This document shows positions 2,894 through 45,493 of a stretch of 64,000 nucleotides of DNA, in pieces. The stretch lies in the NCBI GenBank assembly GCA_947259765.1, contig CAMYNG010000019.1:10892-74891 (forward strand). The letters run 5' to 3'. The position numbers were made by a program, and so were the translations under genes. The stretch's first letter is position 1. The number at the start of each line of letters is the position of its first letter. Origin of the DNA: an uncultured Ectothiorhodospiraceae bacterium (GTDB taxonomy: Bacteria; Pseudomonadota; Gammaproteobacteria; CAMYNG01). The notes beneath the pieces are model-generated. The model saw only the letters and a program-made list of their open reading frames with translations, was not told the origin of the DNA and did no database searches.

Positions 2894-3003
2894 GTCGTAC
2901 GACGGCCTTCGGCCGGCAAGACCGTGGGCCGCAGGGACGCGGCCCTCGAGCCTACAGGGACGTATTTACGGCGTGTCTTGCCGGCCGAAGGCCGTTGTAC
3001 GAC
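2894..3003. repeat. long imperfect inverted repeat (29-bp arms, 52-nt spacer containing a second GC hairpin)
   Basis: GTCGTACGACGGCCTTCGGCCGGCAAGAC (2894-2922) is the reverse complement of GTCTTGCCGGCCGAAGGCCGTTGTACGAC (2975-3003) with 1 mismatch. The spacer holds GGGCCGC-AGGGAC-GCGGCCC. Confidence 0.7.
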
Positions 3004-34997: not shown

Positions 34998-37900
34998 ATG
35001 GCTGATCCGTATGTAGTAAAAATGCCGCAGCTCTCCGACACCATGTCAGAGGGCACCGTGGTGACCTGGGAAAAGGAAATCGGTGATTTCATCGAACGCG
35101 GCACCATTGTTGCCACCATCGAAACCGATAAGGCAATCATGGACGTGGAAGTGTTCCGTGAAGGCTATCTTTCCGGCCCCGTAGCGGCAGTGGACGCTGT
35201 TATTCCCGTCGGCAAGCCTATTGGTTATCTGGTTGCGGACAAGTCTGATGTCAAACAGGACGGCAGTTCACCAACGCCGGTGACCGAGCCACAACCTGCA
35301 GCCGCACCTGCCTCCTTATCTCCCTCCACAGTCGAGCAGGTCGCTGACGAAACACCAAGCGATGCCTACACCGTCAAGATGCCACAACTGTCCGACACCA
35401 TGACCGAAGGTGTGCTGGTAAGTTGGGAAAAGAGCGTCGGCGACAAGGTTGAGCGCGGCGACGTGGTGGCCCAGGTGGAAACCGACAAGGCCATTATGGA
35501 TGTCGAGGTATTTCGTGAGGGGTATCTCTCCGGACCAGTGGCGGAAGCGGATGCAACGATCCCGGTCGGTGAAGCCATTGGTTATTTAGTACAGGACAAG
35601 GCCCAGGTTCTCGATACACTCAAGACTGTTTCAACCGCGGTCCCTGCTGCAGCAACAAGCAGCACGATCAAATCGACACCGGCCGGTACGGCGAAAGCCA
35701 AGACTAAGATCCCGGCCATGCCACACGGCGCAACACCCGCACCACGACCGCGGGGCACGGGTGCCACGCCATATGCGCGTCAGCTTGCCGGTGCCCACGG
35801 CATCGATCTAAACAGCATTACCGGCTCAGGACCGAACGGCGTCATTGTTGCCGCCGATGTGTTGAACAGCGAGGTGCAGAAGACCGCGACCAAGCGGATC
35901 TACCAAGTGCCTGGTGTCGGCCGTCCCATGGACGCCATGGAAAAGGCCGTTACCCACAACATGGAATACTCACTTTCCATGCCGCTGTTCCGCGTAACCG
36001 TGAATATCAATCCAAATAACCTGAAGGAAGCGTCCAAGGCCAAAGGCTTTTCCTTAACGGTCACGCTGGCTAAGGCCACTGCGCTGGCAATTCAGGATTT
36101 CCCGCGAATCAATGCCGTCTATCAACACGAGGATCGAATCGTCGAACGCGATCAGGTGGATGTCGGTCTCGCCGTTAAGACCGAGGGCATGGGTTTAGTG
36201 GTACCGATTCTGCGCGATGCCGCAAATCGGGATCTCGGATCGCTCAATGACGATTGGAAAGATCTGGTGAATCGTGCACGCGCGCGGCGCTTGAAGCCGG
36301 ACGAGTATTCCAATCCGACCTTTACTATTTCAAATATGGGCATGCTGGGTGTTGCACACTTTGATGCCATCCCGTCACCGGGTACCTCGGCGATCTTTGC
36401 CATCGCCACGACCGGCCCGCAGGGTATGCCCGTTACCATCACCGCGGATCATCGTATCGTCAATGGTGCAGATGCCGCAGAGTTTTTAAACCGTTTCAAA
36501 GAACTGGTCGAGCACCCGACCTGGCTCGACAGTGCCGCCGTGCCGGCTAGCGGTACGACCGGTCCGGCGTTTCAGATCCCTAAAGGTGATTGGGATTATG
36601 ACGTGGTGGTGATCGGTGGTGGGCCGGGTGGCGAAGATTGCGCACGTGATCTGGTCGAACATGGATTTAAAGTGGCCATGGTCAATGATGCACCCTTCCC
36701 GGGAGGCGAATGTCTGTGGCGGGGTTGTATTCCCTCCAAGGCGTGGCGTGCCGCGGCGGATCGTATTCGCGATCGGGCGCATGACAGTTTGCTTGGCGTC
36801 AAAGGCACCAATAAAGCAGAACTGGATTGGAAAAAACTGGAGAAACATCGTCGTGGTGTTCTGGAAAGCCGCGGCGAGATGGCCTTAAAGACCGATAAGG
36901 GTGTCAGGATAGATGTAATCCAGGGCTTCGCGCGTTTCCAGGATGACCACCACGTGTTCGTTGATACAGGTGGTAACCAGAAAGATCCGCACACACGTGC
37001 CGAACCCGGCGACGCAAAAAAGGGCAAGCCGGTCAGCTTCGGGGCAGCGGTAATCGCCACCGGCGCTCCGCCGTGGGTGCCGCCGATCCCGGGTGCCGAA
37101 GAGGGACTGGCATCGGGTGGCATACTGACTTCGGATACGGTCTGGGCCCTGAAAGAAACACCAAAGCGTCTGGGTGTGATTGGTGGCGGCGCCATTGGCG
37201 TGGAGATGGCGCAGATCTTCCAGGATTTCGGTAGCAAGGTCATGCTGCTGGAAGTACAGGAGCGGATCCTGGCGGAAGTCGAACCCGAAGTGGCCAAACA
37301 ACTCACCGCTGTGCTCAATGACGATCCAAGACTGAGCATAGAGACCGGCGTGAAAATCAAACATATCAAGGGTGAGCCCGGTGAAATGAAGCTCAGCTTT
37401 GAAGACAAGGAAGGCAAGAACCGTAACTTCGGTTGTGACTATGTCATCGTTGCCACCGGTAAGCGCCCCGAACTGGCACCGTTGTCACTGGACAAGGCGG
37501 GTGTGGTTGAGGAGAAGGGTGTTGTCAAGGCGGATAATAGGGGTCAAACATCGGTGCCACACATTTTCGGTGTGGGTGATGTCATCGGCGGGCTCATGCT
37601 TGCGCACACCGCCGGTCAGCAGGGCAGGGTGGCCGCCGCAACCATCGCCGGCGAGCACATGGTATACGACCAGGACAAGGACTCTGGTGTGATTTTTACA
37701 CGGCCGGAGGCTGCGTTTGTTGGTCTCTCTATGGAACAAGCCAAAGCCCAAGGAATTGACGCGGCTGAGGTCAAGGTACCTATGAGTATCGATGCCAAAG
37801 CGATGATCACGGGAGAACAGCACGGTTTGATTAAGATCGTCGCGGATAAAAAGTCACACCGCATCGTCGGCGTGCATTTCCTCGCGGATCACGCCGATAC

Positions 37901-40908: not shown

Positions 40909-41997
40909 GTGGCAGGGATCAGCCAATTTTCAATTCTTTCAGGAAGTTATCTCTTGATTAAGTGTTTTCTTCATGCTCTGTTGTTGATATGCGTAGCGTT
41001 GGTTGGATTCCCACCGCTCTGTGTCGCCTCGGAAGTGGAACTGGAGCTTGGCACGTTTGGTGATCGGCCGCTTGCCCAGCCACTGGAACATCCGGACTGG
41101 TTTACGGTCAGTTTTCTGGATCTGCGTGAAGATCTTGATGCCGCAGTTGGCAAGGGCAAGCGTGGCCTAATTCTGTATTTTGGTCAGAATGACTGCCCGT
41201 ATTGCAAAGCCCACCTGGAAAACAATTGGGGCCGCAAGGATATTGTTACCTATACTCAAAAGCACTTCGATGTTGTCCACATTGATGTGCGAGGTGACCG
41301 GACAGTTACCGGTTTCGATGGTGTTGAGACTACCGAAAAGGAATTTGCTTTTCGCAACACTGTGCAGTTTACACCGTCCCTGCTGTTTTACGACGCCAAC
41401 GGTCGTCTGGCGCTGAAGATTGCAGGCTATCGTCCGCCTTACCAGTTTCGCGCCGCGCTGGAATATGTTGCCGACAAACACTATGCACGTGAGAATTTTC
41501 GTAACTACCTGGCCCGCGCGGAACCGGCAAGTAGCTACGGCGGTGAGGAGCTTAATGAGAGCGACATTTTCAGTTCACCACCCTTTATGTTTGACCGACG
41601 CTACTTCAAATCGAAGCAACCTCTGGTTGTATTCTTCGAAGAGCAGACGTGCCACCCCTGCGATGTATTACACGGGGGGCCTCTGATTAGTGAAACGGTG
41701 TTTAACAAGTTTCAACAGTTTGAGGCCGTACAACTGGATATGTGGTCTGAAACTCCGGTGCAACTCCCGGGCGGAGAAAAATCGACTGCAAAACACTGGG
41801 CCGACCGGCTCGGCATCAACTACGCCCCTACGCTGATTTTTTTCGACGAAACCGGCCAGGAAATCATGCGGGTGGATTCAGTGGTCGGATTCTATCGTCT
41901 TAATGGCGTACTGGATTTTGTACTTAGCAAAGCTTATAGAACCTACCCCACGTATCTGAAGTGGCGTTATTCTCAGGGCAGCGAACTCAAGCACTGA
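40909..41997 (+). CDS. secreted protein with two thioredoxin-fold domains (CPYC and CHPC motifs)
   Basis: Signal-like N-terminus. LILYFGQNDCPYCK and LVVFFEEQTCHPCD each sit in a Trx-like beta-alpha context, followed by YAPTLIFFD. Confidence 0.6.
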   Translation: MAGISQFSILSGSYLLIKCFLHALLLICVALVGFPPLCVASEVELELGTFGDRPLAQPLEHPDWFTVSFLDLREDLDAAVGKGKRGLILYFGQNDCPYCKAHLENNWGRKDIVTYTQKHFDVVHIDVRGDRTVTGFDGVETTEKEFAFRNTVQFTPSLLFYDANGRLALKIAGYRPPYQFRAALEYVADKHYARENFRNYLARAEPASSYGGEELNESDIFSSPPFMFDRRYFKSKQPLVVFFEEQTCHPCDVLHGGPLISETVFNKFQQFEAVQLDMWSETPVQLPGGEKSTAKHWADRLGINYAPTLIFFDETGQEIMRVDSVVGFYRLNGVLDFVLSKAYRTYPTYLKWRYSQGSELKH

Positions 41998-41999
41998 AA

Positions 42000-42268
42000 T
42001 GACTGTTCCCGATCGCTGCGACTTGTACACGCATGTGAATTCAACAGGACTCAAGCCATCATTTAATCCGTGTTTCGTTCAACGTACAAGCTGAGGGATG
42101 ATTTGTTCCCGCACTACGCTAAAGACAAATCATAGTTCGGCCATGTGGGTTAAAGCACATATATTCAGCTTGCCGATTTCGATCCTCCAACGATCCAGAA
42201 ATGTGGTGGCCGTAGTGTGTTTGACGAATAGTAGGATGGACTTGTTCAAGTAGACGTGGTTTTCTCAT
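42000..42268 (-). pseudogene. intI: tyrosine recombinase (integron-integrase-like) N-terminal remnant, truncated and frameshifted
   Basis: The minus strand from ATG 42268 reads MRKPRLLEQVHPTIRQTHY..., the KPxLLxQV..IR..HY opening typical of IntI/XerD-type N-termini. It hits a stop at 42119, with only faint traces in other frames (..LSLA.., ..GNKSS..). There is no room for the roughly 320-aa enzyme before the gene ending at 41997. Confidence 0.5.
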
Positions 42269-42481
42269 GCCTGCATCTCCTTGTTAAGCGAGCTTAGTAT
42301 GCAAGGTATTGAATTAAGAGCGTTTGTCTAATAGTAGGAAACCGTCCTCTTTCGTCCATTTCAATATTACCTTTTGATATGATAACTTATTGATAAATAA
42401 CGACCCTTGCGTGCCAGGAGGACATTGTCCTCTTTTTAACAAGGAACATTGCCGTCTAATAGTAGCTAGCTGAAAAAAGAA

Positions 42482-42793
42482 ATGAAAAACTTACTTTCAA
42501 AAAGAATTACCTTATGGGGTATCGTTGTAGTTTATGCTGTATTTTCTATGACAACTTGGGATATGTACGAAGCAAAGGGAGTAGAAGCCCCAATATCGGT
42601 TTTTATTGTAAGTATTGGGTTTTTAATGTTGTACATAGTCGCCAGTGTATTCCGCTGTCATGAGCTTAATTGGTCCGGTTGGCGTATTCTCGCTTATCCG
42701 GTACCAATAGTCGGTCTTTTACTACTATTATTTTTGCTCTTCAAAAAACCTTCGGCACCAGAGGGCGTTGGTGAAAATATCGCTAGCAGCTAA
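42482..42793 (+). CDS. cassette ORF: small membrane protein, DUF805-like
   Basis: 103 aa with 3 hydrophobic helices. FRCHELNWSGWRILAYPVPIVGLLLLLFL resembles the DUF805 RLHD..SGWW motif. The TAA stop lies inside the attC R'' core. Confidence 0.5.
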   Translation: MKNLLSKRITLWGIVVVYAVFSMTTWDMYEAKGVEAPISVFIVSIGFLMLYIVASVFRCHELNWSGWRILAYPVPIVGLLLLLFLLFKKPSAPEGVGENIASS

Positions 42794-42859
42794 CCAACGT
42801 ATCGTGGTAGACCGCAAACCGCTTCGTAGTATAGCGGCCACACATGCTGAACGTTAGTC
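42788..42859 (+). repeat. attC recombination site 1 (72 bp)
   Basis: Begins AGCTAAC (RYYYAAC, 1 mismatch) and ends GTTAGTC (GTTRRRY, 1 mismatch). An ungapped alignment to attC2 gives 50/72 identities by hand count, including CGCAAACCGCTT and CCACAC. Confidence 0.7.
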
Positions 42860-42892
42860 CAAATTATATATCCAAACAAAATTGGGAAAACA

Positions 42893-43672
42893 ATGACGAA
42901 AAGACATCGAATACAATTTCCGAAAGATGAATTAACCAGCATCAATCAAGATGAAGCCTATTTCTATCTTCAAGGTTCAGGTGGCAAGAGAAAAATAAGG
43001 TTCCACGACTACGATGAAATTTATCAAGTACCAGGTCTGTATGAACAGATATTCTATGATCGTCTTAAATGCACATCTCCAAGTAAAGTAGCATCAATTC
43101 TCGAATCAGCGGTAAAACAGTATCAAAATAACTTTACTGAGCTTCGTATATTAGATTTAGGTGCGGGCAATGGCATGATGGGAGAAGAGCTAAAAAAGCA
43201 TGGGGTTTCTCGCTTAATAGGCGTAGACATAATACCCGAAGCATATGATGCAGCAATTCGAGATAGGCCGGGAATCTATGATGCATACTATGTTGAGGAT
43301 TTTACCCGCCTAGATAAGGATAAAAGGGAAGAAATAGCGTCATGGCAATGTGATTGCATGGTAACGGTTGCTGCACTAGGTTTCGGTGACATTCCGGCGA
43401 AGGCATTTTTAGAGGCATTTAATATAATTAAGAGCAAAGCGTGGGTTGCCTTTAATATAAAGGATACATTCTTTGATATAGGCGATGAATCAGGATTTTC
43501 AAAAATGATCAGGGAATTAATTTTCTCTAAATATCTTGATATTTACTACATCGAACGCTATCGACATCGGTTGTCAATTGAAGGCGAGCCACTGTACTAT
43601 TTCGCGATAACGGGATGGAAAACATCAGATGTGCCTGATGATTTCTTGGAGTCAAAAGACATCAAGGCCTAA
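42893..43672 (+). CDS. cassette ORF: class I SAM-dependent methyltransferase
   Basis: Motif I ILDLGAGNGMMGEEL, then acidic GVDI, then CMVTVAALGFGD. 259 aa. The TAA stop lies inside the attC R'' core. Confidence 0.75.
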   Translation: MTKRHRIQFPKDELTSINQDEAYFYLQGSGGKRKIRFHDYDEIYQVPGLYEQIFYDRLKCTSPSKVASILESAVKQYQNNFTELRILDLGAGNGMMGEELKKHGVSRLIGVDIIPEAYDAAIRDRPGIYDAYYVEDFTRLDKDKREEIASWQCDCMVTVAALGFGDIPAKAFLEAFNIIKSKAWVAFNIKDTFFDIGDESGFSKMIRELIFSKYLDIYYIERYRHRLSIEGEPLYYFAITGWKTSDVPDDFLESKDIKA

Positions 43673-43738
43673 CAAGCGCATAGTGATGGAACGCAAACCG
43701 CTTTGCGGTTCTGCGCCCACACCTGCGTCACGTTAGAT
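43667..43738 (+). repeat. attC recombination site 2 (72 bp)
   Basis: GCCTAAC...GTTAGAT are perfect RYYYAAC/GTTRRRY cores and match the termini I recall for the aadA-type attC. The internal arms GCAAACCGC / GCGGTTCTGC pair with a bulged base. Confidence 0.75.
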
Positions 43739-43749
43739 TTTAGGAAATC

Positions 43750-44106
43750 ATGAAATTAGCACTCGTTTGGTTTTTCTTATCTGCGTCGATTTCTATTGTG
43801 CTGGCAATAAATGCTCCAAGCTTTCTACCGGTGGGAGAAAGTACAGCCGAGGCGATAAAAATATCGAGTGAACTCCAGCTTCTTGATCAGCTTATGTCAC
43901 TAAGGACGGTTAACAGTGAGATTTTACGAAGTAAACATAAAGAATTGCATAAAACTTATAAGCAAGCGGCTGTTAATAGTCAGATAGAAAACCTCCCGGC
44001 CGTAATACTATTTTCGACATTAATAGGGCTTGGTATTGTAAATATTCTTGTAATTTTTTGGTTGTTGCTGAACAAGTCCAGCCGACAAAAAATACGAAGC
44101 GACTGA
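43750..44106 (+). CDS. cassette ORF: hypothetical protein with N- and C-terminal hydrophobic helices
   Basis: 118 aa. It starts 12 nt after attC2. N-terminal signal/TM, a central helical region, and C-terminal TM VILFSTLIGLGIVNILVIFWLLL. Confidence 0.45.
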   Translation: MKLALVWFFLSASISIVLAINAPSFLPVGESTAEAIKISSELQLLDQLMSLRTVNSEILRSKHKELHKTYKQAAVNSQIENLPAVILFSTLIGLGIVNILVIFWLLLNKSSRQKIRSD

Positions 44107-44135
44107 TTCGTAACGCTACGTGTTTGAAAAGATAA

Positions 44136-44489
44136 ATGAGACCATTTCCTGAAAATTTTCAACTGGAAAGCTTCTTTGAAGGTGAGCCTGAGGTTCTCGA
44201 TAAAGATGTGCCATGGGCGTATAACGAGTTAGTTTTTAATGTCACAGCAAAAAATGGAAACCTTAAAGTAAAAATGGTAACTGGATGTGAGCTCATGGAC
44301 GTAATTTGGAAACAAGGCGAGCACACTGTATTAAAGCTAGAACTTAAGGGCATCAGATCGCTGCAAGTGATGGACGAGAAGAAATACGACACATTAGTGT
44401 CTAGTTTTAGGAGTGAAGATGTAGATGATCTTAAAATTAAAATTCGCCCGGTTATAAGCATTACATGGGGTTATGATGATCAACCTTAA
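44136..44489 (+). CDS. cassette ORF: hypothetical soluble protein
   Basis: 117 aa. Only 29 nt separate it from the preceding ORF, and there is no attC between them, so this appears to be a two-gene cassette. Confidence 0.4.
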   Translation: MRPFPENFQLESFFEGEPEVLDKDVPWAYNELVFNVTAKNGNLKVKMVTGCELMDVIWKQGEHTVLKLELKGIRSLQVMDEKKYDTLVSSFRSEDVDDLKIKIRPVISITWGYDDQP

Positions 44490-44568
44490 ATCAACACATG
44501 ACAAGTCGACCAAGTTTGCGCGCAAGGCGCGCCGGACCGCCAACACGCTTCGCGGCCGCTCGTTTCAA
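44488..44568 (+). repeat. degenerate attC-like site 3
   Basis: ATGACAAGTCGACC...GCCAACACGCTTCGCGGCCGCTCGTTTCAAAT parallels the CCTAACAAGCGCAT...CGTTAGAT layout of attC2, but both cores are mutated. It contains the GCGCGC-aag-GCGCGC hairpin. Confidence 0.35.
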
Positions 44569-44625
44569 ATGCTATGCTGAAAAAAGTACGAGCTGGCATA
44601 TGAAAGAACAAAAATTGGAGGCAGT

Positions 44626-44883
44626 ATGAAGTTTTCAGCAGAAACACTTATTGACGTCTATGGTGCTGGCCAAGAATTACCGACAACCGAACAATGGGAA
44701 ACGCTTGTTAATGGCGATATGAGTTTACCACTAACAGTTGTTAATTTTTTTATACTTAAGGAAAAGGCCGACACATCTTTAACTGACAGTAAAGAAATGA
44801 CGGGAATGGAAGCCTTTCGAAAAGTTGCTCCTAAGAGGTTGGTTACTAAATTGAAAACAATTAGCTGGCATGTCGCCTTATAA
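44626..44883 (+). CDS. cassette ORF: hypothetical protein (weakly DUF1330-like, possibly truncated)
   Basis: 85 aa. The segment PLTVVNFFILKEKAD....TGMEAFRK resembles the long-form DUF1330 N-terminal half. This assignment is from memory and is weak. Confidence 0.35.
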   Translation: MKFSAETLIDVYGAGQELPTTEQWETLVNGDMSLPLTVVNFFILKEKADTSLTDSKEMTGMEAFRKVAPKRLVTKLKTISWHVAL

Positions 44884-44924
44884 ACGCTTTCGCACTGACG
44901 GTTATACGGGTATCGACGTTTATT
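44879..44924 (+). repeat. short attC-like inverted repeat 4 (doubtful)
   Basis: TATAAACG...CGTTTATT: 7-bp terminal inverted repeats contain AAC/GTT, and the stop codon overlaps the left core. At only 46 bp it is shorter than typical attC sites. Confidence 0.25.
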
Positions 44925-45094
44925 TTCGTGACCCATAAAGCCCGCTGGCAGCGGGGCTCTAATAACCTTAGCAACCGTCTACTACGATAATACTTTCGAA
45001 AGGGCACCGATTTATCGGTACACTCACAGACCACGTTAAATTGGGCAGCGCGTCGGTCAAATGAACGACCACGTGAGACATTAGGTCGCGTTTT

Positions 45095-45493
45095 CTATTG
45101 TTTCCCAGGTTCGTCGATGGCCACGCGGATATAACCGGGCTGTGGATGTTTCGGGCCTGGGAGTTTGACGTCAAAACGAACGGCAAGCGCTTCTCGGGCT
45201 TCTATCCAGTTCTTACCATCAAAACTCACCCAGTTCTTGTAGGCATAAATATCCCGCTTGAGAGTTACCGTGAGTTGATCGCTGGCCTGCTGTTGCAACA
45301 GCGTACCGACGATTTGGACGTCTGTGCTGATTGGTTGTCCGGCTGGAAAGAGCAAGATGAAGTCCTGGTTTGCAGGAATCTTTTCTCCGAAAGTTACCAT
45401 GGGAACCTGGGCCAGTTCGCTGGATGTCGGTACACCGGCACAGGCAGAAATCGCTAGACTGGCCATGATGGCGAGCACAATGGTTCTCTTCAT
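45095..45493 (-). CDS. hypothetical lipoprotein
   Basis: Lipobox LAISAC|AG. 132 aa. Confidence 0.55.
   Translation of the reverse strand: MKRTIVLAIMASLAISACAGVPTSSELAQVPMVTFGEKIPANQDFILLFPAGQPISTDVQIVGTLLQQQASDQLTVTLKRDIYAYKNWVSFDGKNWIEAREALAVRFDVKLPGPKHPQPGYIRVAIDEPGKQ

Follow-up and report, generated by a model that had tools for sequence, protein, structure and literature searches.

Layout and composition of the locus

The region described here is a 64-kb window (the whole stretch of DNA that was analysed) of contig CAMYNG010000019.1, from an uncultured gammaproteobacterium with kinship to marine sulfur oxidisers. Within this window, positions 42209 to 45085 are occupied by a compact block with the features of an integron, namely a piece of an integrase gene (intI), a series of gene cassettes and the recombination sites (attC) that go with them. 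The block is bounded on the left by the end of a thioredoxin-like gene (41997). The extreme 5' end of an intI gene is found on the minus strand (42209-42268). It is followed by five cassette open reading frames (ORFs), at 42482-42793, 42893-43672, 43750-44106, 44136-44489 and 44626-44883, all on the plus strand and separated by short spacers, an arrangement already described in the initial annotation of this DNA and confirmed here. Four attC sites accompany these ORFs, and the remnant of a transposase gene of the IS30 family of insertion sequences (IS) forms the right edge. What can be observed at this locus is the wreck of an integron: a leftover of 19 intI codons, five cassettes, four attC sites and an IS scar at the distal end.

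The base composition sets this region apart from its surroundings. The G+C content is 40% in 42269-44925, against 50-52% in both flanks and 52% in the whole window. The fall reported in the initial annotation, from 50% to 30%, is correct in its direction and overstated in its depth, the lowest value reached by any 200-nt window within the block being 33%. Each of the five cassette ORFs has a G+C content of 38.4-39.1% (flanks, 50-52%), and this near-equality suggests that they were drawn from a common low-GC cassette pool. Within the same interval (42482-44883) the attC sites, unlike these nearly uniform ORFs, vary between 47 and 61% G+C.

IntegronFinder defines a CALIN, or cluster of attC sites without an integron integrase, as at least two attC on one strand within 4 kb, with no integron integrase gene nearby. 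At this locus, four matches to an attC model are found within 1.8 kb on the minus strand, and no intact intI was detected in the window, of which 42 kb lie to the left of the array and 19 kb to its right. On this basis, the block at 42209-45085 is very probably a degenerate chromosomal integron, that is, a CALIN in the IntegronFinder sense that retains a scrap of its own integrase gene. The locus does not qualify as a complete integron because an intact intI is absent.

The attC sites and their state of preservation

The attC sites were detected with two covariance models, neither of which includes any sequence from the window. Model R1 was derived from the bottom strands of 19 attC that follow homologues of the cassette 2 methyltransferase gene in other contigs, with only the R-box and L-box pairs imposed. 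When applied to related loci it recovers 82 sites, 81 of which are on the strand of the methyltransferase gene, with arrays of seven to eight sites in loci L041, L034 and L079. Model R2 was built from 82 attC matches in 79 related loci. The pairing of the resulting family is backed by covariation: 211 compensatory cells can be counted, against 81 +/- 7 in shuffles, and 83% of the cells are paired, against 18-43% when the partners are slid, both figures being taken from an alignment that was fitted to the model. The entire 64 kb was searched with R1 and R2 on both strands with the filters off.

The two best R1 matches in the window, at 43667-43738 (22.3 bits) and 42788-42859 (16.1 bits), coincide to the base with the two 72-bp elements that had been recognized by inspection. 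Their previously reported cores, their identity at 50 of 72 positions without gaps and their overlap with the preceding genes are all correct, the ORFs ending at 42793 and 43672 having their TAA stop codons inside the first and second element, respectively. With R2, the four best matches are all inside the block, all on the minus strand and all at or just past ORF ends. The next R2 match, at 2894, scores 14.5 bits (E = 0.5). This best match outside the block corresponds to a G+C-rich palindrome of 110 nt (2894-3003, plus strand; GTCGTACGACGGCC...GGCCGTTGTACGAC) without TAAC/GTTA cores, and probably represents a hairpin of an unrelated kind. A search of Rfam gave no match in the region.

The four sites differ considerably in their preservation. 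The first, attC 1 (42788-42859, minus strand, 72 nt), has the intact cores AGCTAAC and GTTAGTC and the highest R2 score (25.1 bits, E = 9e-4; R1, 16.1 bits). Owing to mismatches in the L box, its fold does not surpass that of shuffled sequence (z = 0.0). The second, attC 2 (43667-43738, minus strand, 72 nt), combines the intact cores GCCTAAC and GTTAGAT with scores of 22.3 bits for R1 (E = 0.007) and 22.0 bits for R2 (E = 0.005). It forms 14 of the 15 model pairs in standard manner, and it is the only site whose bottom strand folds as a canonical hairpin (-18.9 kcal/mol, z = -3.9). On the bottom strand, the 3' arm bears the bulges, at T48, T53, T57-A58 and T64, and the extrahelical bases are T, A and C, in which they differ from the classical G and T.

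The other two sites are relics in which the RYYYAAC/GTTRRRY cores present in attC 1 and attC 2 have failed. The relic attC 3 (44067-44121, minus strand, 55 nt), between ORF 3 and ORF 4, was overlooked in the initial annotation. Its cores, GCTGAAC and GCTACGT, are degenerate, and it scores 21.6 bits with R2 (E = 0.007) and 12.7 bits with R1. Six of its 15 model pairs are broken, and its minimum-energy fold (z = -1.6) is not the canonical hairpin. It is collinear with a short class of attC exemplified by locus L024, in which the intact homologue folds with z = -4.7. This relic spans the end of ORF 3 and accounts for the attC that seemed to be missing between ORFs 3 and 4. The relic attC 4 (44496-44577, minus strand, 82 nt) has the degenerate cores ACATGAC and GCTATGC and an R2 score of 17.5 bits (E = 0.08). 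A column-by-column comparison gives 83% identity with an intact attC at positions 44-130 of locus L071 (ACATAAC...GTTATGT; R1, 26.5 bits; z = -3.8), from which attC 4 differs by an 8-bp deletion, and the fold of attC 4 itself has been lost (z = +0.15). The initial annotation had placed an eroded attC here, at 44488-44568; the identification is borne out by the covariance model and by the homology with L071, and the coordinates have to be shifted by 8 bp.

Taken together, a single site folds better than shuffled sequence, and the cores are mutated in two. Only one or two of the four look usable. The bulged internal pairing noted in the initial annotation for the two 72-bp elements is borne out as a stable bottom-strand fold in attC 2 and in none of the other sites. 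The two relics share the same GTT to GCT change in their R' core (44115-44117 and 44571-44573), at the base beside the expected cleavage point. On the bottom strand this change reads AAC to AGC, in a column that is A in 77 of the 82 family sites.

A truncated integrase gene at the left edge

A minus-strand ORF of 49 codons begins at 42268 with MRKPRLLEQVHPTIRQTHY and its frame remains open to 42119; the end of the thioredoxin-like gene at 41997 bounds it, as had been noted. Its recognisable part, the 5' remnant of intI (42209-42268, minus strand), comprises the start codon and 19 codons (RKPRLLEQVHPTIRQTHY), preceded by a ribosome-binding site (AAGGAG) located 8 nt upstream. The part of the ORF past this remnant is not IntI-like. 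The opening RKPRLLEQV...HY is an N-terminal signature shared by verified integron integrases of one clade. In locus L086, which contains a member of this clade, the integrase begins with METTNKPRLLDQVRERCRLKHYS, and the closest N-terminus reads MESSRKPRLLDQV.

The specificity of this resemblance was evaluated by ungapped scoring over six frames. With a 17-mer of the L086 IntI as query, the stub scores 50, whereas the next-best site of the window reaches 28 and none of 200 shuffles exceeds their maximum of 40. Even the 8-mer KPRLLDQV alone scores 36 on the stub, against 25 for the next-best site and a shuffle maximum of 32. A tblastn search reaches E = 8e-4 on the stub within a local 600 nt. 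The integrase-type N-terminus proposed in the initial annotation is a clade-specific IntI motif, the sole match of its kind in the window and above all 150-200 shuffles. An intact intI is absent from the 64 kb, whether searched for with a hidden Markov model (HMM) of IntI, built from 120 integron integrases of the clade (several of them so named by NCBI or JGI), or by tblastn, for which the L086 IntI, IntI1 and VchIntIA served as probes; these searches revealed no other integrase in the window. Past codon 19, no significant likeness to IntI is found, and about 300 codons of intI are missing or unrecognisable. It can be concluded that the stub is the true 5' end of intI, of which the remaining 300 or so codons were deleted or overwritten.

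The spacer of 211 bp that separates the thioredoxin-like gene from this remnant (41998-42208, 45.5% G+C) gave no Pfam match in six frames. Two candidates for further integrase fragments were rejected. A second collinear IntI fragment after a 41-nt deletion (EIGKLNICA-LTHMA, aligned with EMGKLHIEAFLTDLA) gave a best alignment no better than those obtained in 59 of 300 shuffles. The peptide LYTHVNSTG (42023-42049, plus strand) resembles the catalytic motif IYTHVLNKG of tyrosine recombinases; its E-value is 0.68 in a 600-nt search, it is encoded on the strand opposite to the stub, and it is probably a product of chance.

The intergenic region between intI and the first cassette (42269-42481, 213 bp, 38.5% G+C) is the expected place of attI and of the promoter, and has no copies elsewhere. 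At 42281, no more than 13 nt separate the sequence GTTAAGC from the ATG; in loci L086, L105 and L106, the aligned position is occupied by the ribosome-binding region. Four promoter-like sites were counted in this region, against 7.0 +/- 2.2 in shuffles, and the one weak sigma-70-like match (42436-42463, 9/12) is at the level of chance. Several repeats can also be observed between 42200 and 42500. An exact 12-mer (GTCTAATAGTAG) is present at 42326 and again at 42454, and the intI stub contains a further copy, identical at 10 of 12 positions, at 42223. A 23-nt repeat pair (42214/42317) encodes PTIRQT in both copies despite four nucleotide differences. A perfect 10-nt inverted pair is formed by TCCTTGTTAA at 42278 and TTAACAAGGA at 42436. 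These repeats could be attI-type binding repeats or duplications.

The cassettes and the distribution of the methyltransferase gene

The ORF of cassette 1 (42482-42793, plus strand) encodes a membrane protein of 103 amino acids of the DUF805 family (PF05656, 34.9 bits against a cut-off of 25.7). Cassette 2, whose whole span is 42854-43732, contains an ORF (42893-43672, plus strand) for a class I S-adenosylmethionine (SAM)-dependent methyltransferase of 259 amino acids (Methyltransf_11 of Pfam, 25.1 bits against a cut-off of 21.2). The ORF of cassette 3 (43750-44106, plus strand) encodes a predicted membrane protein of 118 amino acids with weak PycTM-like matches. Its last 13 codons are inside attC 3, and its cluster at 90% identity has a single member. 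The ORFs of cassette 4 (44136-44489, plus strand, 117 amino acids) and cassette 5 (44626-44883, plus strand, 85 amino acids) have no family assignment. The attC of cassette 5 is missing or truncated, no covariance-model match being found 3' of this cassette. Homologues of cassettes 1, 3, 4 and 5 were not found, the libraries of defence systems and phages gave no convincing match for the cassettes, and the Pfam and NCBIfam family searches revealed no resistance genes.

The methyltransferase gene supplies evidence from outside this DNA. Its protein falls in a cluster of 154 members at 90% identity, the flanking genes being singletons at the same level, and 369 relatives with 80-97% amino-acid identity were collected from marine-sediment and hydrothermal metagenomes. 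In many of these loci the gene ends in GCCTAA, followed by a C and by an imperfect palindrome ending in GTTAGGY, and the attC thus delimited measure from 55 to about 100 nt. The attC match starts at the methyltransferase stop codon in about 33 loci. On the other side of the gene, a strict GTTRRRY is found 36-44 nt before the ATG in 36 of the 73 distinct upstream contexts, which are conserved downstream of it and unrelated upstream; the corresponding sequence in the window is GTTAGTC, at -40 relative to the ATG. Related contigs with the methyltransferase cassette bear arrays of up to eight attC. In one case, that of L086, the methyltransferase is the first cassette beside an intact intI, the product of which is a complete integrase of 322 amino acids (486 bits with TIGR02249, integron integrase, against a cut-off of 265). 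The methyltransferase is a real mobile cassette, cosmopolitan in the integrons of marine sediments. No close counterpart of it was detected in a plasmid collection of 72,556 records. A sequence comparison with the PDB returned a single weak match (E = 0.003), and a single-sequence AlphaFold model, with a predicted local distance difference test (pLDDT) value of 35, was unusable.

A few relatives of this gene have a different environment. In L018 (9879-10780), the methyltransferase is outside an array, with an attC upstream and none downstream, within a contig of 776 kb. In L021 (1245-3645), L022 and L050, it is beside an IS66-family transposase fragment, and the next ORF begins 5 bp later without an attC. 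In L038 (2001-2871, plus strand), an IntI-like gene detected in two tblastn segments is located downstream of the methyltransferase cassette on the same strand. The two segments suggest a frameshift, and this gene may be another intI pseudogene, in an orientation that is unusual for an integron.

An IS30-family scar at the right edge

The right edge of the block is a C-terminal remnant of an IS30-family transposase gene (44906-45085, plus strand), interrupted by two in-frame stops and a single frameshift. Over 167 nt it shares 71% identity with the coding strand of an ORF of locus L075 (1500-1665), and this ORF matches NF033563 (IS30 family transposase) with E = 1e-26. Once corrected for the frame and masked for the stops, the remnant itself aligns with positions 211-266 of the 267 of this profile (E = 4e-18). 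Its 66 bits do not reach the cut-off of 80 set for the whole protein. About 56 residues survive, at the C-terminal end; this is a remnant, not an IS element. An IS scar thus terminates the array, and the attC of cassette 5 was lost.

This assignment changes the status of the segment 44879-44924, initially regarded as a fourth, eroded attC. No covariance-model match is obtained there, even with truncated matches allowed, and the GTTTATT taken for a core corresponds to V-Y-F codons of the IS30 remnant. When compared by eye, the 5' half of this segment is identical at 18 of 27 positions to an R''-L'' arm of the L083 type, and it may be the stump of a fifth attC, a suggestion that the model does not support.

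Two further features of the vicinity can be mentioned. The IS30 remnant abuts the stop of a lipoprotein-like gene at 45095. The sole tRNA gene of the window, tRNA-Thr (CGT) at 35690-35778 on the minus strand, is 6 kb from the block and does not adjoin it.

Origin of the locus and competing explanations

The truncated intI and frozen array suggested in the initial annotation remain the best description of this locus, in view of the motif of the stub, the absence of an intact intI, the three sites out of four without a fold and the two with mutated cores. The scenario would be the following. An integron integrase encoded on the minus strand would have inserted promoterless circular cassettes, each consisting of an ORF and a folded attC hairpin, successively at the adjacent attI, and the outcome would have been an array of low-GC genes on one strand, read from a promoter near intI. 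During its decay, intI would have been deleted or scrambled past codon 19, two attC lost their conserved cores and their hairpin, and an IS30-family element would have entered the distal end and been largely deleted in its turn, with removal of the last attC. The order of these decay events is presumptive. The array would now be immobile in cis. An integrase brought in from outside could at most still excise the methyltransferase cassette, which is flanked by the two sites whose cores are intact.

Several points weigh against this reading. The portion of the genome examined is limited to 64 kb. The attC models are self-built and are not those of IntegronFinder, their E-values are rough on account of a shortened calibration, and attC 4, taken alone, is marginal (E = 0.08). 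The integrase remnant measures just 57 nt and is backed by ungapped scores, shuffles and position. The IntI HMM does place the stub as its top match in the window (profile positions 5-23), but with 5 bits only and E = 0.43, and the 49-amino-acid ORF has zero matches in Pfam, NCBIfam and the PDB. Neither of the elements expected between intI and the first cassette was identified: 42269-42481 gives no alignment to the attI regions of L086, L105 and L106, and no cassette promoter was recognized in it. Finally, close relatives of the host are absent from the collections, so that cassette variability and an ancestral intact intI at this locus have no comparison genome. The nearest relative of the thioredoxin-like flank, apart from the source itself, has 60% amino-acid identity in a search of 5.8 billion proteins. 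A scan of contigs with this flank returned 17 loci with at most 56% identity and no shared neighbours, belonging to Thioalkalispiraceae, Candidatus Thiodiazotropha and other gammaproteobacterial metagenome-assembled genomes, and exact look-ups of the window proteins in the contig index gave no match.

One alternative is a living satellite array, on which an intact integron integrase encoded at another place in the genome would act in trans, with cassettes still being exchanged. The consensus RYYYAAC/GTTRRRY cores kept by attC 1 and attC 2 and the canonical fold of the latter speak for it, and a large number of CALIN are reported to share their genome with integrons, with which an exchange of cassettes may take place (Cury et al. 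2016, PMC4889954). However, two of the sites have neither cores nor fold, the fold of a third does not surpass that of shuffled sequence, an attC is lacking for the last cassette and there is no intI in the window. At most one cassette, that of the methyltransferase, lies between two plausible sites, and continued exchange in trans is considered unlikely. It is less likely still that no integrase was ever present, the cassettes having been inserted in trans at a secondary chromosomal site and the IntI-like start being coincidental. Off-target insertion of cassettes is documented (bioRxiv 10.1101/2022.09.11.507474), the match is limited to 19 codons and the profile methods give it no significant score. 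The same match is nevertheless unique in the window and outscores each of the 150-200 shuffles, which holds even when the 8-mer is taken by itself. Its first codon is an ATG preceded by a ribosome-binding site, and its strand and side are those on which intI would be expected, the ORF of cassette 1 being about 210 bp away.

The suspicion that the sites are ordinary intergenic palindromes, such as repetitive extragenic palindromic (REP)-like elements or terminators, in an acquired island unrelated to integrons could find some comfort in the three sites that fold no better than shuffled sequence, and in the lack of Rfam matches in the region. This proposal has next to no probability and is already contradicted. 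The sites fit a model of structure and sequence derived from arrays in which 81 of 82 sites have the same orientation, attC 4 is homologous to the intact L071 attC, and the methyltransferase gene is bounded by GTTRRRY and GCCTAAC in dozens of unrelated contexts and adjoins a verified integron integrase in L086. The degenerate integron with a remnant of its own intI is thus retained. Its decay could also be seen as non-random, with selection recurrently fixing useful cassettes in place through the inactivation of their recombination sites, a process that this locus would show halfway. This idea, prompted by the GTT to GCT change shared by both relics and by the methyltransferase genes found without attC outside arrays (L018, L021), is given little credence.

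Relation to known integrons

The locus belongs to a known and already described kind of element, and is in this respect an ordinary finding that leaves the current understanding of integrons unchanged. Its value is that of a clear example of the death of a chromosomal integron, in which loss of the integrase, erosion of the attC and IS damage are seen together. It supports the view that some CALIN arise through the loss of intI, it illustrates that a piece of the intI 5' end can persist at a place where searches based on the C-terminal domain see nothing, and it brings to attention a SAM-dependent methyltransferase whose cassette is unusually widespread among the integrons of marine sediments.

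In their survey, Cury et al. (2016, PMC4889954) reported 279 CALIN with about five attC on average and intI pseudogenes near only 15 of them, proposed the loss of intI and IS activity as origins of CALIN, and found IS in a quarter of integrons. The present block resembles these elements by its attC (at least two within 4 kb on one strand), by its promoterless same-strand cassettes mostly without known function, by the lack of a functional intI nearby and by the size of its array, of about five cassettes, and it would join the minority class with a recognisable intI pseudogene. It differs in that only the extreme N-terminus of IntI survives and in that half of its attC are relics. The detection of pseudogenes by Cury et al. 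was keyed to the C-terminal domain of IntI (PMC4889954), and would have missed a remnant reduced to the N-terminus.

Close counterparts are also the chromosomal integrons of marine gammaproteobacteria with an IntI of the Chromatiales / Thiodiazotropha / Methylomonas type, of which L086 is an example. They share with the window the N-terminal motif KPRLLDQV...HY, the CTAAC and GTTAG cores, an L box whose bulges are borne by the 3' arm in the bottom strand, and the same methyltransferase cassette. L086 differs by its complete integrase of 322 amino acids and by an attI junction (GTTAGGC) located 138 nt from the intI ATG, neither of which is recognisable in the window. The class 1 integron, with its IntI1 integrase, attI1, Pc promoter and attC, is composed of a divergent integrase gene followed by an array of ORFs, each with an attC made of R and L boxes. 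This general layout and this attC logic are common to the window, whose block is, by contrast, not a mobile resistance integron.

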